Source of the DNA: Terriglobales bacterium
GTDB taxonomy: Bacteria > Acidobacteriota > Terriglobia > Terriglobales > Acidobacteriaceae
DNA length: 61,361 nucleotides
NCBI GenBank assembly: GCA_035643915.1
Contig: DASQPN010000119.1
Span: forward strand, 1-61,361
Direction: 5' to 3'
Of this stretch, positions 1-55,172 are shown piece by piece. The translations under genes and the position numbers were made by a program. Position 1 is the first letter of the stretch. Each line of letters opens with the position of its first letter. The notes under the pieces were generated by a model. It was given only the letters and a program-made list of their open reading frames with translations. It made no database searches and had not been told where the DNA came from.

Positions 1-467
1 TACCAGCGGAGCGCCTCAAGCGAACTCTTAGGCACACCCCGACCATGTTCGTACATGGACGCCAGATTGTTTTCTGCGGTTGCGTGACCCTGCTCGGCGG
101 CCGCGCGGTAGTATCGGACTGCCTCGCGGTAGTTTTGCGCAACGCCCCCACCTCGCTCATACAGGTACCCCAAAGCAAATTGGGCAGCGGGGAGATTCTG
201 CTCTGCGGCCGCGGCATACCATTTGGCAGCTTCTCGATAGTCCTGGCGAACGCCCGAGCCCGCAAGATACGCGTCACCGAGCGCAGACTGAGCGACCGCA
301 TCGCCCCTCTCCGCTTTTTGCTTCACATTCACAAGTTCGGGAGGCACGCTTGCCTTTGACAATTGTTGGGTGTCAGGGGGATTCCGCTCCTCCTGTGCAG
401 AAACCGCAGAAACATAGAACGAAGCCACCACCAACAACGTAATGGATTGAAAGGGTCGCAATTGCAT
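1..467 (-). CDS. Sel1-like (SLR/TPR family) repeat protein with N-terminal signal peptide; partial, continues beyond the window start
   Basis: Not in the ORF track (runs off the edge). Hand translation from ATG at 467: MQLRPFQSITLLVVASFYVSAVSAQ... followed by repeats AQSALGDAYLAGSGVRQDYREAAKWY, AQFALGYLYERGGGVAQNYREAVRYY, AENNLASMYEHGRGVPKS, which is the typical Sel1 pattern. Confidence 0.7.
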   Translation of the reverse strand, partial: MQLRPFQSITLLVVASFYVSAVSAQEERNPPDTQQLSKASVPPELVNVKQKAERGDAVAQSALGDAYLAGSGVRQDYREAAKWYAAAAEQNLPAAQFALGYLYERGGGVAQNYREAVRYYRAAAEQGHATAENNLASMYEHGRGVPKSSLEALRW

Positions 468-26211: not shown

Positions 26212-27384
26212 ATGACGCCGAGTCGGCCCGGGGAATTGCACCCCGAGCCGCTCACAGATCCGGACTTGAACCTCTCGATTCATCCGGCTCGTGCCACCCA
26301 ATGAAGACTGCCGTCCTCCATCTCGACCGTATCGGTTCCTCCTGTTGCCAGTTGACCAAACCGGCCAAGACGCGAGTGGCCTGTCCCCTTCGCTCCCCGG
26401 GCATTACCCCGGTTCCTCACTACTACGAGACAGTCCGCCCCTGCTCAACGGATCAGTACTTTCGGCCTCGCGGGGCTTCCGCTTGTGCCTTTTCCCTTAG
26501 CACCGCCGGCAGGTTCTCAAGTTCCGTACCAGAGCCCGGGATAGAGTCACGCCACCTGTGCACCGGACACCACATGGCCAGTAAGCAGGTTTCCGCCATG
26601 CCTTTTCCCAGAGAAGATGGGCCGCTCCGGTTTCGATGTCATCGGTTGATCCGCTTCGATGCTTTCTCAGTGGTTCACTTGCGTTCGTCTCTCTATTCCA
26701 CACATGACGTGATTTTCTCACGTCTTTTGACCATGACGTTCACCACCGCGGCTTTTGACCGAAGCAGCTCATGGCTGTTTGAAGCCTGTTCCTACAAACC
26801 GGCTTCGAAGGGCCTTCCTTCATGTCCAGCACAGCATCGTGCTCTTACGAGCGCGTTCTTGACACAACCCCTCCACGGATCCGGACGAGCGGGTTTCCCG
26901 CACCCGGCTCTTGCCTTAGGTAACGACGCCCATGCGCCGCAGGGGATAGGGATGACAGACAGAAGGCAGAGGCGACTTCTCAGGTACTTCAGGTCTGTCC
27001 GACTTCCCAGGTCCGTTCGTCATCGGCGTACGTCCTTAGACTTCCCGATGCGTCCCAAGTCCACTGTGGCCCTGGGCGAGCCTGGGATATCCCGGTTCCC
27101 GCGCGAGGTGCTTCCGTACGTGCACGGGGTCTCTGACCGCGCGGGACTCTGGCACACCTCGCGATATCGGTGCACCGGATGGGGCCTTCCGCATCTCCTG
27201 ACAGCGTCGGCGTCCCGGAGCAATTGTCTTACGCGGCTCAATACCCGGCCCGCACGTTCCCTTGTCAACGCTTCGACGCCGCCCTCGCGAGCGGCTCCGC
27301 ATGACTCGGGGCCGATGTGGGTCGCTGGTCCACTTTCGTATGACTCTTTCATTCACTACACCTCGCCGGTTTTAACCGGCGCAC
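26212..27384 (-). mobile_element. Bacterial group II intron lacking an intron-encoded protein (ORF-less / IEP-deleted); 3' boundary approximate
   Basis: On the minus strand the 5' end reads GUGCGCC at 27384. The 34-nt domain V is complement(26257..26290), GAGCCGGAUGAAUC-GAGA-GGUUCA-AG-UCCGGAUC, with an AGC triad, GNRA loop and 2-nt bulge. Domain VI has a bulged A at 26223. Domain-I sequence gives the familiar spurious peptide ESYESGPATHIGPESCGAAREGGVEALT. Only about 35 RT-like codons remain (around 26487-26612). Confidence 0.8.
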
Positions 27385-46357: not shown

Positions 46358-47479
46358 CTAGGCGGGTTCCTGTGTGACGATGTGCACGTCCACTGCGGGG
46401 GCGTCCCGGAGGAAACGGTGGACGGCGGAGAAGTACAAATAGCGTCTCCACCCTCGGGTCGCGGATCGTCCAAATACAACCTGGGTGAGATGCTTTTCAT
46501 GCACCACCTCGGCCACGGCGGCTGCCACCGTGGTCCCTTTTACGCGCACCACGGTGGCCCCGACATTTTCCGCAAATTGGACGTTGGCCTGCAGAGTCTT
46601 CTGATTCCGCTGGCTGTCATCCTGTCCCAGGTCGACGTACACGACGTATAGCTCGCCATCCAGAGCCTGCGCCATGCGGGCACCCCGTGCGATGAGGTGC
46701 TGAGCTGCCGGATTCGAACTGATGCAGACGGCGATCCGCTCCCGGACGCCGAAATTCCTTCGGGTCTCCTGTTTGTCGAGATAGGTCTCCAGGCTACGGT
46801 CCACGGCGTGGGCGACCTGACGCAGCGCCAGCTCGCGCAGCGCGATCAGGTTTCCCGGGCGGAAGAAATTGCCCAAGGCGCGCTCTACCCGCTCGAGCGG
46901 GTAGACGTCCCCGCGCCGCATTCGGTTCTGCAGCGCCTCGGGCGTGAGATCCGCCATGACCACTTCGTCTACACGCTTCAGAACCCAGTCTGGAACGGTC
47001 TCCCGCACCTGGATCCCGGTGATGCCTTGGACGGTGGGTGTCACGCTCTCCAGATGCTGGATGTTCATGGTGGAGAGAACATCGATACCCGCGTCGAGCA
47101 GTTCGTACACGTCTTCGTAGCGCTTCCGGTGTTTGCTGCCTTCGATATTGGTGTGCGCCAACTCATCCACGATCGCGACCTGGGGCTTGCGAGCCAGAAT
47201 CGCATCCACATCCATCTCCTCAAAGAGCGCACCCTTGTAATCGACCCGCCGGCGCGGAACCGGCTCCAACTGAGTTGCCAGCTCTGCGGTCGCTTTGCGG
47301 CCGTGAGTCTCAACCACACCAAGCACAACGTCTTCCCCGCGACTGTGGCGCCGGATGGCCTCGCTCAGCATGCTGTAGGTCTTGCCCACACCCGGCGCGT
47401 AGCCGAGGAACAGCTTGAAAACGCCGCCCTTCTTGACAGGGGCGGCTTCTTCCAGCCACTGTTCCGGAGTCTTGGTCAT
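46358..47479 (-). CDS. kdpD: KdpD N-terminal sensor module only (KdpD domain plus Usp domain; no TM or kinase part)
   Basis: Start chosen at ATG 47479. FKLFLGYAPGVGKTYSML, VVETHGR, VDELAHTN, then Usp-like RIAVCISSNPAAQHLIARGARMA...LYVVYV...VVFGRS. Ends without DUF4118 or HisKA. Confidence 0.8.
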   Translation of the reverse strand: MTKTPEQWLEEAAPVKKGGVFKLFLGYAPGVGKTYSMLSEAIRRHSRGEDVVLGVVETHGRKATAELATQLEPVPRRRVDYKGALFEEMDVDAILARKPQVAIVDELAHTNIEGSKHRKRYEDVYELLDAGIDVLSTMNIQHLESVTPTVQGITGIQVRETVPDWVLKRVDEVVMADLTPEALQNRMRRGDVYPLERVERALGNFFRPGNLIALRELALRQVAHAVDRSLETYLDKQETRRNFGVRERIAVCISSNPAAQHLIARGARMAQALDGELYVVYVDLGQDDSQRNQKTLQANVQFAENVGATVVRVKGTTVAAAVAEVVHEKHLTQVVFGRSATRGWRRYLYFSAVHRFLRDAPAVDVHIVTQEPA

Positions 47480-47537
47480 TGCCAAGTATTGTGCGTTAGC
47501 TGCCTGAAATTGTCGAACGTCAGCTACAATCGCCGTC

Positions 47538-48977
47538 GTGAAAGAGACCCTGGCCAAGCAGATCGTCCGCTACCTGGTGGCGGCAGCTGCGGTTTTCGTC
47601 ATCGTTTTCAGCTATCGGGCGATTCGTGTTAGCAACCCGACCACGGTGGCGCTCACGTTCCTGCTGACGGTGCTGATCGTTTCTACGGTCTGGGGACTCC
47701 GGACCTCCGTGTTCACCGCGGTCGTGGCGACCCTGGCCTTCAACTACTACTTTCTGCCTCCGGTTGGCACTTTCAACATCGCCGATCACCAGAATTGGGT
47801 GGCGCTGTTCGCATTTCTTGTCACAGCGGTGATCGCCAGCCAACTGTCGGCCCGGGCCCGGCGCGAAGCCTTGAATGCAAACGAAAGGCGCCGGGACGTT
47901 GAGCGGCTCTACGCCTTCAGCCAGCAACTTCTCTCCAGTGACAATGTCGTCGAGTTGCTGAACGTGTTGCCCAGCTACGTGGTGGAAGCTTTTGGGGTTG
48001 AGGCCGCCGCCATTTCCTTACCCGAACGTCAGGACGTATATCGCTCCAGGGCCGAGATCGGCGCCTTGGAAGCGCATGACTTGCAACTGGTGTGCAGTCG
48101 TGGAGAACCGCGCATCGATCCCCAGAAGAATCTAGCTTTCATGCCGCTGCGTATGGGAGTGCGTACGGTGGGCGCTCTGGGTATTTCGGGGAGCCGGTTG
48201 TCTCGTGGAACGCTGGATGCGATCAGCAGCCTGATTGCCATCGCGATTGAGCGGGCACGAGCGGTCGAAAATTTGAGTCGCACCGAAGCCGCGCGAGCGA
48301 GCGAACAGCTGCGCTCCGTGCTGCTCGATTCGGTTACCCATGAGTTCCGCACCCCGCTGACTGCCATCAAGGCCTCGGTGACTTCTCTGCTATCGAACTC
48401 CCAAATGGATGGGTCGCAGAAACAGGAATTGCTTACCGTCATCAACGAAGAAAGCGACCGGTTGAATCGTCTGGTTGGAGAAGCGGCAGAAATGGCCCAG
48501 CTCGACGCGAACCAAGTGGAGCTGCATCTGGCGTCGCACCCGATCCCCGAGGCTCTCGACAGCGCTCTGGAAGATTCCAAGCAGGTCCTGGGTAAGCACC
48601 CAGTGGAGGTGCGTTTGCCGGCAACTCTGCCGCCCGTGCGCATGGATGCGACCCGGATCAAGGAAGTCCTCATGCACTTGCTGGAGAATGCGGCCAAATA
48701 CTCGCCTCCGGAGTCTCCGATTCACATTACCGGCGAAGTGCGGAATCGCACCCTGATGACCAGCGTCTCGGATCGAGGTGCGGGCATCGACGACTTCGAA
48801 CAAGCACTCATTTTCGATAAGTTCTATCGCGGACGAAATCAGCGGCTGACGGTCCAAGGCACGGGCATGGGACTCGCGATTGCCAAGGCAATCGTTGAAG
48901 CCCACGGTGGGACCATGGGAGTCACCAGCCAACTCGGACACGGGTCGGTCTTTTATTTCACGCTGCCAGTTGCCTAA
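47538..48977 (+). CDS. Histidine kinase corresponding to the KdpD C-terminal half (DUF4118 TM domain, GAF-like, HisKA, HATPase)
   Basis: GTG start. TTVALTFLLTVLIVSTVWGLRTSVFTAVVATLAFNYYFLPPVGTF; H-box VTHEFRTPLTAIKAS; GTGMGLAIAKAIVEAHGG. Confidence 0.8.
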   Translation: MKETLAKQIVRYLVAAAAVFVIVFSYRAIRVSNPTTVALTFLLTVLIVSTVWGLRTSVFTAVVATLAFNYYFLPPVGTFNIADHQNWVALFAFLVTAVIASQLSARARREALNANERRRDVERLYAFSQQLLSSDNVVELLNVLPSYVVEAFGVEAAAISLPERQDVYRSRAEIGALEAHDLQLVCSRGEPRIDPQKNLAFMPLRMGVRTVGALGISGSRLSRGTLDAISSLIAIAIERARAVENLSRTEAARASEQLRSVLLDSVTHEFRTPLTAIKASVTSLLSNSQMDGSQKQELLTVINEESDRLNRLVGEAAEMAQLDANQVELHLASHPIPEALDSALEDSKQVLGKHPVEVRLPATLPPVRMDATRIKEVLMHLLENAAKYSPPESPIHITGEVRNRTLMTSVSDRGAGIDDFEQALIFDKFYRGRNQRLTVQGTGMGLAIAKAIVEAHGGTMGVTSQLGHGSVFYFTLPVA

Positions 48978-49367: not shown

Positions 49368-50204
49368 TCAGATCTTTCCCGTGAACGCGCCATAGAGCAT
49401 CTCAGCGCCGAGAGCGACAATCACCGCAGCAAATACCAGTCGCAGCTGCTTTGTTTTGGTGCGGGCCAGGACACGGGCACCTGCCAGAGAACCGGCCAAC
49501 ACACCGAGCATGACCGGCATCGACAACCCCGGGTCCACGTACCCGCGGCTCAAATACACGCCGGCGCTGGCGGCTGCCGTCACTCCGATCATGAAGTTGC
49601 TGGTGGTGGTCGAGACCTTGAAAGGGATTCCCATGGCCTGGTCCATGGCGAGAACTTTCACGGCTCCCGATCCAATCCCAAGAAGCCCGGAAAGCGCCCC
49701 GGCTCCGAACATCAGACTGAATCCCGCGGGAACCCGGTGGACGTAGTATCGCTTTGGACCGCTCAGGGAAGGATACGTGCCGTTCATGCCCAGACGGGTT
49801 GCGAGTTCGTCGGGCTGATCGTCAGCAGGAGACTCAGCCGGAGTCCGGCTGGAGAGATACCCGGAATAGAGAAGAACCAGACCAAAGACGACGCCAATGG
49901 CGGTGGTCGAAACGCTGGCCGCGAGAAAGGCACCGAAGAGCGCTCCTAATGTGGTGGCGATTTCAAGAAACATCCCGATGCGGATGTTGGAGAACCCGTC
50001 CTTCAAATAGGCCGCGGCCGCTCCGGATGAAGTTGCGATTACCGAGACCAGCGAGGCGCCGACCGCATACCGAATGTCCACCTTGAACACCAGGGTGAGC
50101 AAGGGGACCAGCACCACTCCACCGCCCAGGCCGGTGAGAGCCCCCAAAAATCCGGCCATGAACGAGGCCAGCCCAACCAGGACGGTGAATTCCAGGATAT
50201 TCAT
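49368..50204 (-). CDS. TauE/SafE-family sulfite/anion exporter-like permease
   Basis: Start chosen at ATG 50204. MNILEFTVLVGLASFMAGFLGALTGLGGGVVLVPLL, a multi-TM Gly-rich pattern. Confidence 0.75.
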   Translation of the reverse strand: MNILEFTVLVGLASFMAGFLGALTGLGGGVVLVPLLTLVFKVDIRYAVGASLVSVIATSSGAAAAYLKDGFSNIRIGMFLEIATTLGALFGAFLAASVSTTAIGVVFGLVLLYSGYLSSRTPAESPADDQPDELATRLGMNGTYPSLSGPKRYYVHRVPAGFSLMFGAGALSGLLGIGSGAVKVLAMDQAMGIPFKVSTTTSNFMIGVTAAASAGVYLSRGYVDPGLSMPVMLGVLAGSLAGARVLARTKTKQLRLVFAAVIVALGAEMLYGAFTGKI

Positions 50205-50419
50205 GCGACTCCCGCACCAGTGTGCCACAGGGAGTGCTTCCGGGTCTTTGGGTTGGGGGCTGGAACCTTTGATGCCCAGGTCCTTGCTTTGAATCGGGGT
50301 GGGCTCGATTCGCGGAGCCAATCGCCGCGGAAATCGGACTGCCCATGGCGCCCTGGGGGTTCAGGAGCATGAGTTTTACGAGAGCCGTCGGTATTCGGCC
50401 CGTCTCAGCGCTCCCCGGC

Positions 50420-51196
50420 TCAGGATCCGGCATCCCCCAACTGAACGAGCGGGGAGGGCGCGCCGGGCGGATCGGGAAGATGTAGGCCGCACTCAGTTTT
50501 CTGCAATCCAGCCCAACGCCCGGCGCGGGCATCTTCGCCGGGACGGACCGCACGAGTGCAATGAGTGCAACCGATACTGGGGTAGTCGGAATCATGGAGC
50601 GGGTTGTAGGGCACATCATGAGCGCGGACGTAGCCCCACACTTGTTCGCTGCTCCAGTCCACAATCGGGTTGATTTTCACGAGCCGGAACTTCTCGTCCC
50701 ATTCCACTTTGCGTGCCTTCGCACGAACTGAAGTTTGCCCGCGGCGAATGGCCGTGATCCAGGCGCGCAATCCGGCCAGCTTGTCGGCCAGGGGCCTGAC
50801 TTTCCGCAATCCGCAGCACTGATCCGGGTTGGTGCTCCACAGGGCGGGCCCGTAGATGTTTGCTTGATCTTCCGGCGTCAATGGAGAACGCAGTCTTTCG
50901 ACAGTCAAGCCATAGCGCCGCTCCACTCTCTCCATAAGCTCGTAGGTTTCTGGGAAGAGAAAATCCGTATCGACCGTGAACACCCGGAGATTCGGATTGA
51001 CGCCCACCGCGATGTCGACGAGCACCATGCCTTCCACACCGAAACCTGACGCCATCTCGACGCTGTTGCCGAAAGTCTTGAAGGCCCATTCGAGCAACTC
51101 TTGCGGATTCCATGTTTCGGCTAAGCTCTGCGTTCTTTCCACGATCTCGATCACCGATTCGCTCCTAGTCACCCAAAAACGCCTGGTTGTCCACAA
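50420..51196 (-). CDS. cysH: Assimilatory adenylyl-sulfate/phosphoadenylyl-sulfate reductase, thioredoxin-dependent (Fe-S type Cys motifs present)
   Basis: C-terminal KTECGLH. Cluster-type cysteines DQCCGLRKV and SIGCTHCT suggest the APS-reductase subtype. The start may be a few codons downstream of 51196. Confidence 0.85.
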   Translation of the reverse strand: MWTTRRFWVTRSESVIEIVERTQSLAETWNPQELLEWAFKTFGNSVEMASGFGVEGMVLVDIAVGVNPNLRVFTVDTDFLFPETYELMERVERRYGLTVERLRSPLTPEDQANIYGPALWSTNPDQCCGLRKVRPLADKLAGLRAWITAIRRGQTSVRAKARKVEWDEKFRLVKINPIVDWSSEQVWGYVRAHDVPYNPLHDSDYPSIGCTHCTRAVRPGEDARAGRWAGLQKTECGLHLPDPPGAPSPLVQLGDAGS

Positions 51197-51986
51197 AAAC
51201 GTCGAGCACGTTTGCGAGTGGACCAGAGGGGTCCGCCTCGAAATCGCTCATGGCGAGCTCCCCATGGGAGCGCACGGAATCTCCTTGGCCAATCACATCG
51301 CCGACCAGCAGCAGCGTTGGCGCAGGGAGCAGGGGTGCGCTTGGCAAGTTCTTCACCGTGGTGCGATGGATCTGCTCACGGTTCGAACTGGCTCGCGAAA
51401 CGATGGCACAGGCAGTCTCGCCCCTCATCCCCGCCGACATCAGTTGCTGAGAAGTCTGTGCGTAACTGAAGCCGGGCATGTAGATCGCGAGAGTTGCGCC
51501 GGATCGCACGAATGCCTCCCACTCCACGGTCTGGTTGCAATTCGCATGATGGCTGGTAAGAAACACCACCGCGGAAGCGGTGTCGCGCTGCGTTAAGGAC
51601 ACTCGTGCGGCCGCTGCCGATGCCAAAGCCGACGTCACGCCGGGGATAATTTCGAAATCGACGTTGGCCTTGCGGAGCGCACCCATTTCCTCCCCCGCAC
51701 GGCCGAAAATCAGGGGGTCTCCTCCCTTGAGTCGCACCACCTTGAGTCCGAAAGAGGCGAAAGCCACCAACAAAGCGTTGATCTCTGCCTGCTGCACGGC
51801 CTTGCGTCCGCAGCGCTTACCAACGTTCCGCACCTCTGCGCTCTTGGGGACCAGCGCCAGAATCTCGGAACCGATCAGGTCATCGTGCAGCACGGCCTCG
51901 GCCGATTGCAGTACCCGGAGAGCTTTGAGCGTGAGCAACTCCGGATCGCCCGGCCCGGCCCCGACCAAGAAGACCTTACCGTTCAT
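51165..51986 (-). CDS. cobA: Uroporphyrinogen-III C-methyltransferase (SUMT)
   Basis: Start chosen at ATG 51986: MNGKVFLVGAGPGDPELLTLKALRVLQSAEAVLHDDL. The longer tracked ORF (to 52334) overlaps the upstream gene out of frame. Confidence 0.85.
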   Translation of the reverse strand: MNGKVFLVGAGPGDPELLTLKALRVLQSAEAVLHDDLIGSEILALVPKSAEVRNVGKRCGRKAVQQAEINALLVAFASFGLKVVRLKGGDPLIFGRAGEEMGALRKANVDFEIIPGVTSALASAAAARVSLTQRDTASAVVFLTSHHANCNQTVEWEAFVRSGATLAIYMPGFSYAQTSQQLMSAGMRGETACAIVSRASSNREQIHRTTVKNLPSAPLLPAPTLLLVGDVIGQGDSVRSHGELAMSDFEADPSGPLANVLDVFVDNQAFLGD

Positions 51987-52605
51987 GACCCACCCCTTGC
52001 GCAACTCTCTCCCGGGATTGTCGAACCGACTCGCGCACTTCAAACGACTGGCGGCTGGCCGCTGCATGCAACAGGCTGCGGCGACGGTCCGGGTTGAGCG
52101 GACGGGAAAAAAGGCCCTTTCGGATTCTTCCCAACTCCTCGAGCCAGCCCGCGTAGACGGGCGCCAGCTGCGCCTCGAACTCGCGACGCAATCTCTGAGC
52201 AAGCGCTGGGCTGCGTCCTGCCGTCGAGATGGCAACCTGAAGCTCTCCACGGCGAACCACGGCCGGGTAGTAGAAGTCACAGCGGGCGGGATCATCCACC
52301 ACGTTCGACAGAACATGGCGGCTCTGCGCTTCACGGTAGACAGAGTCGTTTACTTCTATGCAGGAGGTGGCCGCGACGACCAGGAAGATCGAGTCCAGAT
52401 CCGCGGGCTGGAATGGACGAGCGTCCCACTCCAACACCCCAGCACGAGCCCAGGCTGCAACCGCCGGTGTTGCCCACGGTGCGACGACCCGAACCTCTGC
52501 ATGAGCAACCAGCAGGCTGCGAATCTTGGATTCGCCGATCTTGCCGGCTCCTACAACCAGACAAGGCCGATCTTCGAGTTTCAGGAACATTGGAAAAAGG
52601 CTCAT
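51976..52605 (-). CDS. Precorrin-2 dehydrogenase / sirohydrochlorin ferrochelatase (SirC/CysG N-terminal type)
   Basis: MFLKLEDRPCLVVGAGKIGESKIRSLLVAHAEVRVVAP. Confidence 0.8.
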   Translation of the reverse strand: MSLFPMFLKLEDRPCLVVGAGKIGESKIRSLLVAHAEVRVVAPWATPAVAAWARAGVLEWDARPFQPADLDSIFLVVAATSCIEVNDSVYREAQSRHVLSNVVDDPARCDFYYPAVVRRGELQVAISTAGRSPALAQRLRREFEAQLAPVYAGWLEELGRIRKGLFSRPLNPDRRRSLLHAAASRQSFEVRESVRQSRERVAQGVGHER

Positions 52606-52632: not shown

Positions 52633-54336
52633 CTACCCCTCTACCCCGTGCGGCACCCGTCCAGGCGAGGCATCGCGCACGACCGCCGCCACCAACTCGC
52701 CCGCCAGGAATTCCCGCAGTTCGACGTCGCTGTGCCTTGAGAAAAACTGACGCAGGTTTTCGCGAGGTCCACGATCCTCGAGATAGCGCTTTAGCAAGCG
52801 TTCAATCGCACCGGGAACCTCGCTGGCCAGGCATCGGTATCCCACTGGGCGCGCGATCGATTGGTGCATGCCCAGGGCGCCGCCCACGCAGAAGTAGTAG
52901 GCGTCCTCCATCCGATCGCCCACTTTGATCTTTTTGCCTTCGATCCCCAGGTCCGCGATCCAATGCTGGCCACAACTGTTGGGGCATCCGGTGACATGCA
53001 GCTTCAAGTGCTCTTCGAAGCCCGGCAGCCTCTCTTCCAGTTCCTCCACCAGCCAACGTGAGAAGCTCTTGGTCTCGGTGATCGCCAGCTTGCAGAACTC
53101 CGAGCCGCTGCACGCGACCGCCCCGCGCCAGAAAGGCGAACCGTTCACACGGAGTCCTGCCGCATCCAGCTCCTTCACCAACGGCTCGACGTTCGGTCGC
53201 GGCAGGTTGACGATGAGCAGGTTCTGCATGTTGGTCGTACGGAGTTGTCCGTCCGCAAATCGCTCTGAAAGATCCGCCGCGATTTGCATTTGCCGGGCCG
53301 TGATTCGCCCCCGCAAAACAGCAGCGCCCACGAAGAAATATCCCGGTTGTTTTTGGGCGTGAATCCCGACATGATCCCGATAGAGGTCGTCGGGGAGTTG
53401 CTCTTCGGCCGCGGGCTCCAGTGGAAATCCCATCCGGCTCTCGAGCTCTTTCTGGAAGGTCTCTGCGGTCCAGCCGTGCTTGAGGAAAAGGAATTTCAGA
53501 CGGGCGCGTTCGCGGTTTTCACGGAGTACTTCGCTATCCCGGAATATTTCGGCGACCCCGTTGAGAACCGGCACGACCTGGCTCTGTCGCACGAACGCGT
53601 TGAGCCGGGTCGCCAGATGGGGATCGGTCGAGAGTCCACCGCCTATGCGGAGCGAGAAGCCTATCTCCTGCTCGCCTTGGACCCGGCGGCTGACCGCCGT
53701 AAGACCGACGTCATTGATCTCCGGATAAGCACACCAGGAACGGCATCCGGTGATGCAGATTTTGAATTTTCGCGGGAGGTTGTAAAACTCGGCGTTACCG
53801 ACAAAGAACCGGTTGGCTTCGAGAGCCAGGGCGGACGCATCGAAGATTTCGTCTGCATCCACCCCCGCCAGCGGGCACCCGGTGATGTTGCGCGTGTCAT
53901 CGCCGCAGGAGCCCTTGGTGGTCAGTCCAGCTCGCCAGAGAGCATCGAGAACTTCGGGGAGGGCTTCGATGGTCACCCAGTGAAGCTGCACATTTTGACG
54001 AACCGTGAGATCGGCCGAGCCACGCGCATATCGTTCGGTCACTTCGGCGATGGCCCGGAGTTGATGCGCAAGGAGCAGGCCGTTGGGGATTCGGATACGC
54101 ACCATGAAGTAAGGCAACGCCTTACCTTCCCCGCCCTTCCCGCCCACCACCCCGGCACCGTCTCCCTGGGTGTAGACGCCCCACCAGCGAAAGTAGGTGC
54201 CGATCCACTCCGGCGGAATGGAACTGAAGCCTTCCCGCGCGAAACGGCGAATTTCGTCGAGCCCCTCCCACGGGTTCTTCTCCCGCTTCAGGCGCTCGAC
54301 TCGTTGCGCCTTCGTCTCTTTGGCTGGATTGTTCAT
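52633..54336 (-). CDS. sir: Assimilatory sulfite reductase hemoprotein (ferredoxin/NiR-SiR family)
   Basis: Two NiR/SiR ferredoxin-like halves. Siroheme and 4Fe-4S Cys motifs ACSGSEFCK and VTGCPNSCGQHW. Confidence 0.9.
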   Translation of the reverse strand: MNNPAKETKAQRVERLKREKNPWEGLDEIRRFAREGFSSIPPEWIGTYFRWWGVYTQGDGAGVVGGKGGEGKALPYFMVRIRIPNGLLLAHQLRAIAEVTERYARGSADLTVRQNVQLHWVTIEALPEVLDALWRAGLTTKGSCGDDTRNITGCPLAGVDADEIFDASALALEANRFFVGNAEFYNLPRKFKICITGCRSWCAYPEINDVGLTAVSRRVQGEQEIGFSLRIGGGLSTDPHLATRLNAFVRQSQVVPVLNGVAEIFRDSEVLRENRERARLKFLFLKHGWTAETFQKELESRMGFPLEPAAEEQLPDDLYRDHVGIHAQKQPGYFFVGAAVLRGRITARQMQIAADLSERFADGQLRTTNMQNLLIVNLPRPNVEPLVKELDAAGLRVNGSPFWRGAVACSGSEFCKLAITETKSFSRWLVEELEERLPGFEEHLKLHVTGCPNSCGQHWIADLGIEGKKIKVGDRMEDAYYFCVGGALGMHQSIARPVGYRCLASEVPGAIERLLKRYLEDRGPRENLRQFFSRHSDVELREFLAGELVAAVVRDASPGRVPHGVEG

Positions 54337-54378
54337 AAAAACAAAAAGCCCACCGCCAGATATGTCTCTGGCGGTGGG
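54337..54378 (-). terminator. Intrinsic terminator (attenuator) between the Cys-rich sORF and the sir start codon
   Basis: Minus strand: CCCACCGCCAGA (54378-54367), GACATA, TCTGGCGGTGGG (54360-54349), a perfect 12-bp stem. It is followed by CTTTTTGTTTTT (54348-54337) and then immediately the sir ATG (54336). Confidence 0.75.
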
Positions 54379-54405
54379 CGATAATTGCTGATTCTTAAGG
54401 ACTTA

Positions 54406-54495
54406 CTAGGTCAGCAGCCTCCCTGTGCCAGAAGACGCGCGCGTACAACAACAAGTACAACAACACGCGATCGAGGTCTGGCAGGAAGCCAACAT
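54406..54495 (-). CDS. Cysteine-rich leader peptide sORF (29 aa), candidate attenuator leader of the sir operon
   Basis: Hand-read: ATG TTG GCT TCC TGC CAG ACC TCG ATC GCG TGT TGT TGT ACT TGT TGT TGT ACG CGC GCG TCT TCT GGC ACA GGG AGG CTG CTG ACC TAG (TAA) = MLASCQTSIACCCTCCCTRASSGTGRLLT. Confidence 0.6.
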   Translation of the reverse strand: MLASCQTSIACCCTCCCTRASSGTGRLLT

Positions 54496-54504
54496 GATCT
54501 GGCG

Positions 54505-54533
54505 ATAGTAGAGGCTGGTGGAAATCCTGTCAA
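54505..54533 (-). promoter_or_regulatory. Sigma70-like promoter for the Cys leader (predicted leaderless or near-leaderless transcript)
   Basis: Minus strand: TTGACA (54533-54528), 17 nt, TACTAT (54510-54505), then 9 nt to the ATG. No SD. Confidence 0.4.
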
Positions 54534-54612
54534 CTCGGTTCTGTCGCTCGAGCTATCAAAACTTCGAATAGCGGTAATCGAAAAATTCGAATGGTCAGCC
54601 CCAGGTCACCGT

Positions 54613-54641
54613 TTGACTAACACCTTCGCCTCCACTACTCT
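54613..54641 (+). promoter_or_regulatory. Sigma70-like promoter for the His leader (predicted leaderless or near-leaderless transcript)
   Basis: TTGACT (54613-54618), 17 nt, TACTCT (54636-54641), then 8 nt to the ATG at 54650. No SD. Confidence 0.4.
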
Positions 54642-54649
54642 CTAGGTCG

Positions 54650-54718
54650 ATGTCATCTCATCGCCATCATCGCCATCATCATCACGCGCACAGCGCGTTG
54701 GCGGGGGTGCATTCCTGA
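54650..54718 (+). CDS. Histidine-rich leader peptide sORF (22 aa) of the his operon
   Basis: Hand-read: ATG TCA TCT CAT CGC CAT CAT CGC CAT CAT CAT CAC GCG CAC AGC GCG TTG GCG GGG GTG CAT TCC TGA = MSSHRHHRHHHHAHSALAGVHS. Eight His fall within 11 codons. Confidence 0.75.
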   Translation: MSSHRHHRHHHHAHSALAGVHS

Positions 54719-54743
54719 GTTAGACCAGCACTCATCGAAGTTC

Positions 54744-54783
54744 AGCCCGCTGACGCAAAAGGCTCAGCGGGCTTTTTGTTTTT
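54744..54783 (+). terminator. Intrinsic terminator (attenuator) between the His leader and hisI
   Basis: Perfect 10-bp stem AGCCCGCTGA (54744-54753) / TCAGCGGGCT (54764-54773), 10-nt loop, then TTTTGTTTTT. The hisI SD GGAGG follows at 54793-54797. Confidence 0.75.
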
Positions 54784-54803: not shown

Positions 54804-55172
54804 ATGGATATGGAGATTGACTTCAACAAAATGCAGGGTCTGGTACCAGCCATCGTGCAAGACGCAGGCTCGGACCAGATCCTAATGCTCGGCTTCATGA
54901 ATCAGGAGGCGTTCGAGCGCACGTTGCGCTGCGGATACGTGACCTTCTTCAGCAGAACCCGCAACCAACTGTGGACCAAAGGCGAAAGTTCGGGCAATCG
55001 GCTGAAGGTCATCTCCGTAAGCACCGACTGCGACCGTGACTCATTTCTGGTGCGCGTCCAGGTGGAGGGAGCGGGGGTGGTCTGCCACTTGGGAACGCGC
55101 TCCTGCTTCACTCAGGAGATCCCGCTTTCCTCTGCGCCAAAGCTGGAAGAGGCGCGGGAGATCCAGCGATGA
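54804..55172 (+). CDS. hisI: Phosphoribosyl-AMP cyclohydrolase (monofunctional, no HisE domain)
   Basis: [54 protein letters not shown]; 122 aa. Confidence 0.9.

Follow-up and report, generated by a model that had tools for sequence, protein, structure and literature searches.

The window analysed here is a stretch of 61,361 nucleotides (nt) from a Terriglobales bacterium (contig DASQPN010000119.1), and our subject is the interval of 467 nt which separates the ATG of cysI (54336) from that of the divergent gene hisI (54804). As judged from sequence and folding models, this interval very probably carries two independent ribosome-mediated leader-peptide transcription attenuators, one sensing the charging of Cys-tRNA and the other the charging of His-tRNA. 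The two leaders lie back to back, the ATGs of their divergent short open reading frames (sORFs) being 155 nt apart, and each arm presents, in this order, a promoter, an sORF without Shine-Dalgarno sequence (SD) that contains a run of cognate codons, an antiterminator/terminator pair and the matching biosynthetic operon. Each leader would be transcribed from its own constitutive-looking sigma-70 promoter, located close to the start codon of the sORF. An initial annotation of this DNA had proposed attenuation of both operons by such paired leaders; indeed, all the elements that it listed are present, with a reservation about the upper tier of the His antiterminator, which depends on the fold, and the full anatomy of ribosome-mediated attenuators stands before the corresponding Cys and His operons.

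In the mechanism that we propose, a ribosome would load on the 5'-proximal AUG as it emerges from the RNA polymerase. When charged tRNA is plentiful, this ribosome would reach the stop codon located in the top of the antiterminator and cover segment 2, which may also re-pair with segment 1 under these conditions; with segment 2 unavailable, the GC-rich terminator (pairing 3:4) would form and transcription would end before cysI or hisI. Under a shortage of the cognate charged tRNA, the ribosome would stall in the Cys or His run and segment 1 would be held or blocked; segment 2 would then pair with the 5' arm of the terminator (pairing 2:3), and the polymerase would read into the operon.

Anatomy, conservation and regulated operons

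The elements of the Cys leader, all on the minus strand, are the following:

54528..54533, minus strand: -35 box TTGACA (TTGAC[A/G/C] at the same position in 71 related loci)
54505..54510, minus strand: -10 box TACTAT, after a 17-nt spacer and followed by 9 nt to the ATG
54406..54495, minus strand: leader sORF, MLASCQTSIACCCTCCCTRASSGTGRLLT then stop, 29 codons plus stop, 7 Cys, no SD
54477..54490, minus strand: segment 1 (5' strand of the anti-antiterminator), codons 2-7, from the fold of the window sequence
54445..54465, minus strand: Cys codon run TGT TGT TGT ACT TGT TGT TGT, with a core TGTTGTTGT invariant in the alignment
54364..54436, minus strand: two-tier antiterminator (2:3), UAG stop in a 19-nt apical loop, -25.9 kcal/mol
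54337..54379, minus strand: intrinsic terminator, 13-bp stem, 6-nt loop, tail UUUUUGUUUUU

Those of the His leader are on the plus strand:

54613..54618, plus strand: -35 box TTGACT (position kept in 57 related His leaders)
54636..54641, plus strand: -10 box TACTCT, after a 17-nt spacer and followed by 8 nt to the ATG
54650..54718, plus strand: leader sORF, MSSHRHHRHHHHAHSALAGVHS then stop, 22 codons plus stop, 9 His, no SD
54659..54691, plus strand: His codon run H R H H R H H H H A H
54695..54756, plus strand: antiterminator (2:3), lower tier GCGUUGGCGGG/CCCGCUGACGC, UGA stop in the apical part, -25.6 kcal/mol
54744..54783, plus strand: intrinsic terminator with tail UUUUUGUUUUU

The stem of the Cys terminator (54379-54348) is a perfect helix of 13 bp (-30.5 kcal/mol, z-score of -9.3) and that of the His terminator (54744-54773) is a perfect 10-bp stem with 2 further bp (-22.0 kcal/mol, z = -4.3), while the whole-leader folds have z-scores of -6.5 (Cys) and -3.9 (His). 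Regarding the two-tier antiterminators with the stop codon in an apical loop, as initially described, both exist and the Cys stop codon does lie in a loop of 19 nt; in the minimum free energy structure of the His leader, however, the upper tier is paired otherwise than in the 17-nt loop previously drawn. The His stop codon falls in the apical part of the antiterminator under either pairing of this tier.

Conservation was assessed in two samples of related loci (designated by L numbers where they have to be told apart). The Cys sample was collected by a CysI scan with one genome per species and consists of 80 loci with 71-90% CysI identity, nearly all labelled Terriglobales, Acidobacteriaceae or Ca. 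Sulfotelmatobacter. The His sample was collected by a metagenome scan with HisG and also consists of 80 loci, 64 of which have enough upstream DNA. A Cys-rich sORF lies directly 5' of cysI in about 76 of the 80 Cys loci, with the consensus M-S-x-F-S-N-L-R-x-x-C-M-C-A-C-C-C-C-A-C-V-C-S-G-A-G-R-L-L-T followed by the stop, and 61 of the 64 metagenome loci have a His-rich sORF before the his operon. Among the 64 His leaders collected, a promoter of the same geometry was called in 57 and a hairpin of -12 kcal/mol or below followed by a U-run in 62; the Cys terminator hairpin is kept in about 70 of 70 relatives. The leaders exceed what chance would give, because of the z-scores of their folds and because both elements are kept in dozens of related loci, and each can be regarded as a lineage-wide family in the Terriglobales. 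Their divergent pairing is not universal; it was found in the window and in L001-L003, L043, L044, L049, L081, L082, L086 and L137. All the sequences obtained by the search for protein homologues, at 81% identity or more, were environmental, and none came from a cultured carrier.

Some loci of the Cys sample deserve a separate mention. L017 (labelled Verrucomicrobiia) and L037 (labelled Eisenbacteria) encode CysI proteins of 74-76% identity and both have a Cys leader of the Terriglobales type; these labels are probably binning errors of metagenome-assembled genomes. L069 (labelled Methylomirabilota, CysI 73% identity) and L066 are without Cys leader.

The genes downstream of the two leaders are arranged as follows:

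52633..54336, minus strand: cysI, ferredoxin-type sulfite reductase (NirA/Sir family), first Cys-regulated gene (JGI homologues are named sulfite reductase (ferredoxin))
51976-52605 and 51165-51971, minus strand: split sirohaem synthase, in two halves, 3' of cysI
50420-51196, minus strand: cysH, Cys operon
49368-50321, minus strand: membrane protein gene, after cysH
54804..55172, plus strand: hisI, first His-regulated gene, SD GGAGG at 54793-97

After hisI, the his operon continues in the order hisG, hisD, hisC, hisB, hisH, hisF/A. The two first genes differ in the way they follow their terminator. The ATG of cysI abuts the terminator U-tract, with 11 nt separating it from the stem in the window (6-26 nt for most relatives), and no SD precedes it in the window (54336-54347) or at the same position in most of L001-L080, so that the U-tract may double as an SD-independent landing site for ribosomes. 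The GGAGG of hisI is unpaired and lies 20 nt 3' of the terminator stem.

This arrangement bears on a first alternative, in which the sORFs would be translational attenuators like the mycobacterial polycysteine leaderless sORFs, the stalled ribosome opening the start region of the first gene and termination playing no role. The closest Cys precedent does work in this way (bioRxiv 10.1101/834739), and the hairpin standing 11 nt before the SD-less ATG of cysI could hinder the loading of the 30S subunit. We nevertheless give this alternative little weight: both hairpins are textbook intrinsic terminators, with GC-rich stems of 10-13 bp followed by U5-N-U5, kept in 62/64 and ~70/70 relatives as reported above; neither start codon is within a hairpin, and hisI has its own free GGAGG beyond the stem.

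Alternative helices and ribosome position

Both leaders can form three alternative helices, namely 1:2 (anti-antiterminator), 2:3 (antiterminator, formed with the terminator's 5' arm) and 3:4 (terminator). RNAalifold, run on the alignment of 70 Cys sequences, returned the terminator only and none of the alternative helices, which were then tested with named structures and constrained folding. With named structures, 93.3% of the cells of the Cys antiterminator are paired over 70 leaders versus 35-46% in slid controls; over 64 His sequences, the corresponding values are 84% and 76% for the antiterminator, versus 33-53% in slid controls, and 97% for the terminator. Compensatory changes were observed at 5 of the 11 pairs of the Cys terminator. 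In L064, L068 and L075, a change from G:C to A:U in helix 2:3 is matched by a change in segment 4, as alternative pairing demands.

In the constrained folding, the nascent RNA was folded up to the terminator loop with the ribosome footprint masked, and we counted the leaders whose upstream sequence captures the terminator's 5' arm. With a ribosome stalled in the codon run, capture is predicted in 58 of 67 Cys leaders and 58 of 62 His leaders. Without ribosome it is predicted in 24/67 and 27/62, respectively, and with a ribosome at the stop codon in a single Cys leader of the 67 and in 29 of the 62 His leaders. In the nascent-RNA folds, 81% (Cys) and 87% (His) of the core of segment 2 is, on average, paired with upstream sequence. 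In the Cys leaders its partner lies 5' of the Cys run; in the His leaders the partner is mostly inside the His run, where the interspersed CGC (Arg) codons give a CGCC complementary to segment 2. In classical attenuators the regulatory codons are inside segment 1; the His leader is like these cases in that respect.

The regulatory codons also show a particular usage. In the Cys leaders, Cys is encoded by 326 TGT and 211 TGC codons, as compared with 90 and 864 in the cysI orthologues, which means that the locally rare TGT is enriched in the leaders; the His leaders have a shift towards CAT which is weaker than this preference.

The conservation of the leader peptides, including the Cys-leader tail SGAGRLLT, could suggest that the sORFs are genes for functional micro-proteins rich in Cys and His, respectively, for instance metal-binding ones, and that the hairpins are simply their own terminators. 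Several observations make this very unlikely. The amino acid of the run is always that of the pathway encoded by the operon immediately downstream on the same strand; these operons begin 11-20 nt past the terminator, and no separate promoter is seen for them; helix 2:3, the alternative pairing, is kept in relatives; and nucleotides are kept rather than residues. Indeed, a 1-nt insertion in L027 (5828-5999) rewrites the C-terminal peptide and leaves the nucleotides of segment 2 as they are, and L064, L068 and L075 have a different C-terminal peptide with co-ordinated changes in segments 2, 3 and 4 which keep the pairings. On account of the same frameshift and divergent leaders, in which the RNA is kept, a role of SGAGRLLT as a functional peptide or an arrest peptide was rejected. 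That the C-terminal peptide is conserved in the Cys leaders is best explained by a constraint on the RNA rather than on the peptide.

Promoter-to-ATG geometry and possible control of initiation

The initial annotation had also pointed to a near-leaderless geometry, with no SD and with -10 boxes 8-9 nt before the ATG, and this property holds across the Terriglobales. Between the -10 box and the ATG there are 9-10 nt in 60 of 71 Cys leaders (range 6-12); of the 57 His leaders, 41 have 8-10 nt there (range 6-13, mode 9). Over these 128 leaders, the hexamers, their spacing of 17-18 nt and the distance to the ATG are kept, and the bases between hexamers and ATG vary freely. Because an SD does not fit within the conserved spacing, translation would start at or very near the 5' end of the transcript. 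The canonical distance from a -10 box to the transcription start site is 7 nt; with this spacing, a 5' untranslated region of about 2-4 nt is predicted, the AUG being at +3 to +5; from the conserved promoter 8-10 nt before the ATG and the lack of an SD, the prediction is about 0-4 nt. The data thus allow sORFs which are leaderless or have a leader of at most ~5 nt. A count of the whole pattern, TTGACN-16..18-TANNNT-5..13-ATG/GTG, over 1.43 Mb of related DNA gave 170 occurrences, and 160 of these are the starts of Cys or His leaders.

A second alternative is that these hexamers are not promoters in use, and that ordinary attenuators with long leaders, in which the sORFs would be translated internally and independently of an SD, are transcribed from further upstream. 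The Cys promoter was detected by the promoter scan with 10 matches out of 12; the His -10 box TACTCT agrees with the consensus at only 3 of 6 positions and was consequently missed, which speaks for transcription from upstream, as does the fact that cysI implies the existence of SD-less internal initiation in this organism. The position of the His -10 box is nonetheless kept in relatives. The constancy of the geometry around freely varying sequence, its near exclusivity to leader sORFs and the distance of only 79 nt between the two -35 boxes of the window, which leaves little room for other promoters, make an upstream origin improbable.

Computational prediction gives about 13% of leaderless genes in Acidobacteria (PMC3160421). 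In the related loci, a Ser/Thr protein kinase gene starts 9-11 nt past TTGACT-17-TAACAT (L006:2573, plus strand; L008:4668, minus strand), and this geometry suggests that ordinary genes of the lineage can also be leaderless or very short-leadered.

A further conserved element lies between the two promoters:

54553..54593, no strand assigned: A/T-rich operator-like element between the two -35 boxes (TTCGAAT at 54563-69, ATTCGAAT at 54585-92)

This element, which occupies the spacer between the divergent promoters in the window, reads roughly aaAAttcTGATTCcttncATCGAAAttATGAATCgAAg; L004-L080 and many of the loci L081-L123 have it about 20-60 nt 5' of their -35 box. AT[CT][CGA]AA boxes at a fixed distance 5' of the promoter are present in 56 of 71 Cys and 27 of 56 His leaders, versus 14% of random 100-mers. 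It may be a transcription-factor site common to both operons.

Some of these results weigh against attenuation as we propose it, or limit its scope. The covariation support is thin, since most paired positions are invariant: double changes affect 3 of the 14 pairs of the Cys antiterminator and almost none in the His one. The modelled off state is less cleanly predicted for His than for Cys, as the ribosome placed at the stop codon of the His leaders does not suppress the antiterminator more than the model without ribosome (29/62 and 27/62). Concerning initiation, the predicted AUG position is +3 to +5 and not +1, and leaders of this length are poorly translated in E. coli, so that efficient translation of the sORFs is an assumption. 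Finally, the conserved operator-like element suggests an extra control at initiation, and attenuation may be neither the sole nor the main regulator of these operons.

Relation between the two leaders and comparison with known systems

The two leaders had been viewed as copies of one reusable module, signed by an identical 15-nt tail. The 15-mer GGGCTTTTTGTTTTT does occur exactly twice in the window (0.07 expected), both times at the leader tails. The His tail GGCTTTTTGTTT is kept among His leaders; the Cys tails, however, depend on the lineage (GGGTTTTTTATTTT, GGGTTTTTCTTTTT) and coincide with the His one in the clade of the window alone, which rules out the tail as a module signature. Its identity in the two leaders is best read as a coincidence of this clade. 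Six other terminator-like sites of the window have tails of the same general T5-N-T3 form with different sequences.

Profile hidden Markov models led to the same view of the module. The full-length His model matches the Cys leader of the window (E = 3.7e-4) by columns which correspond to the terminator and its tail, and sub-models without the terminator gave no cross-family match in 0.97 Mb and 0.41 Mb. As the two families cross-match only through terminator and U-tail, common descent was rejected and the sequences lend no support to a reusable module: the Cys and His leaders appear to share a design and no demonstrable descent.

Leaders for other amino acids were searched by strict and relaxed scans of 160 loci and the window (1.43 Mb, DNA sampled only around cys and his loci), and none was found, the scans returning only out-of-frame artefacts of the Cys leader; because this sample is biased to the cys and his neighbourhoods, the result neither supports nor refutes a wider family. 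A broader reading, which we regard as rather doubtful, is that Terriglobales generally use SD-less leader peptides abutting their promoter, as a "ribulon" extending beyond Cys and His, and that the Cys element fuses three functions within some 200 nt: an operator-like site, which many His promoters have as well; a polycysteine attenuator of the classical terminator type, the first for sulfate assimilation; and a terminator U-tract serving as the SD-less landing site of cysI. In such a fusion, the antiterminated conformer would at the same time be the one from which cysI can be translated.

Two other features of the window are unrelated to the leaders. Three consecutive Rfam matches to group II introns (D1-D4-6, 160 bits; D1-D4-2, 108 bits; domain V/VI, 44.6 bits) cover positions 26217-27347 on the minus strand; as this span is only ~1.2 kb, the intron may be ORF-less or degenerate. 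A KdpD-like non-kinase potassium sensor (46358-47557, minus strand) adjoins a divergent histidine kinase similar to the C-terminal part of KdpD (47538-48977, plus strand), and the two open reading frames overlap by about 20 nt at their starts (46358-48977).

In the window, no leader family of Rfam reaches its gathering threshold, and raising the limit to E <= 10 only adds sub-threshold matches driven by the terminators, the best being Trp_leader (19.2 bits, gathering 41) and Thr_leader (16.8 bits, gathering 55); His_leader (RF00514) gives no match even at E <= 10. The same search bears on a last alternative, in which a ligand or a protein would bring about antitermination (riboswitch, T-box-like binding of tRNA, RNA-binding protein) and the codon runs would be incidental. 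T-boxes or riboswitches do precede many amino-acid operons in other phyla (PMC2965389). This explanation has scarcely any plausibility here, given that no Rfam family passes its threshold, that the leaders are about 130-150 nt long with no conserved structured aptamer beyond helices 1:2, 2:3 and 3:4, and that invariant in-frame codon runs with conserved start and stop are the hallmark of sensing by a ribosome.

It is well supported by the sequence comparisons that the leaders represent two new families of cis-regulatory RNA and sORF, whose probable mechanism is of a known kind, the leader-peptide attenuator, and which have an SD-less start abutting the promoter. We found no description of leader peptides or attenuation in Acidobacteriota in the literature searched, and in a survey of 2010 almost no predicted attenuator of this phylum had an assigned function (PMC2965389). 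Acidobacteriota are among the most abundant phyla of soils and their gene regulation is almost uncharted. Both elements are defined, conserved cis-regulatory RNAs with an obvious signal and read-out, which can be added to RNA family libraries, and the annotation of sORFs and leaders that are currently invisible to gene callers can be corrected. In addition, the fixed distance between promoter and ATG provides a natural system for studying the coupling of the first ribosome with RNA polymerase in leaderless or very short-leadered initiation.

The enterobacterial his leader (RF00514) and the trp, thr, leu, phe and ilv attenuators are similar to the present leaders in their sORF with a codon run, their mutually exclusive helices 1:2, 2:3 and 3:4 and their terminator preceding the operon. 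The his, trp and thr leaders are, however, SD-dependent and unrelated in sequence, whereas the sORFs described here are SD-less, start 8-10 nt past the -10 box and belong to Acidobacteriota; the histidine operon described here starts with hisI.

In Corynebacterium glutamicum, his is under another type of control. According to Morbach et al. 2000, as cited in PMC4046766, the ilvBNC leader peptide of this species is made without a ribosome-binding site. Its ilvBNC, trp, leuA and aroF leaders (PMC3890552) are like those of the window in that the 5' end bears an SD-less sORF with a terminator after it, and they are ribosome-mediated, as proposed for the window; they belong to Actinobacteria, none is devoted to Cys or His, and sequence kinship with the window leaders is not expected.

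For cysteine, the mycobacterial polycysteine leaderless sORFs of the "Cys ribulon" (Canestrari et al. 2020, bioRxiv 10.1101/834739) and the actinobacterial cys leader peptides (Seliverstov et al. 2005, PMC1262725) are like the Cys leader in heading sulfur or cysteine operons with an sORF of consecutive Cys codons, which is leaderless or near-leaderless there and predicted to be so here, and in using the ribosome as sensor of Cys-tRNA, as proposed for the window. Control in mycobacteria is translational: a duplex sequesters the next gene's ribosome-binding site, and no terminator was found. The leaders described here differ from them by a conserved terminator and antiterminator, and by a cysI which has no SD to sequester and an ATG outside the hairpin. 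The uORFC-8-2 motif located 5' of cysS in Rhodobacterales (Breaker laboratory, PMC8632094) combines an upstream open reading frame containing Cys codons with an intrinsic terminator, and ribosome-mediated attenuation was proposed for it. It contains only two tandem Cys codons, controls a tRNA synthetase gene instead of an assimilation operon, belongs to Alphaproteobacteria and was not described as leaderless. The Cys element suggests that cysteine supply is sensed by a classical terminator-type leader peptide, which had earlier support only from cysS in Rhodobacterales, with a translational form in mycobacteria.

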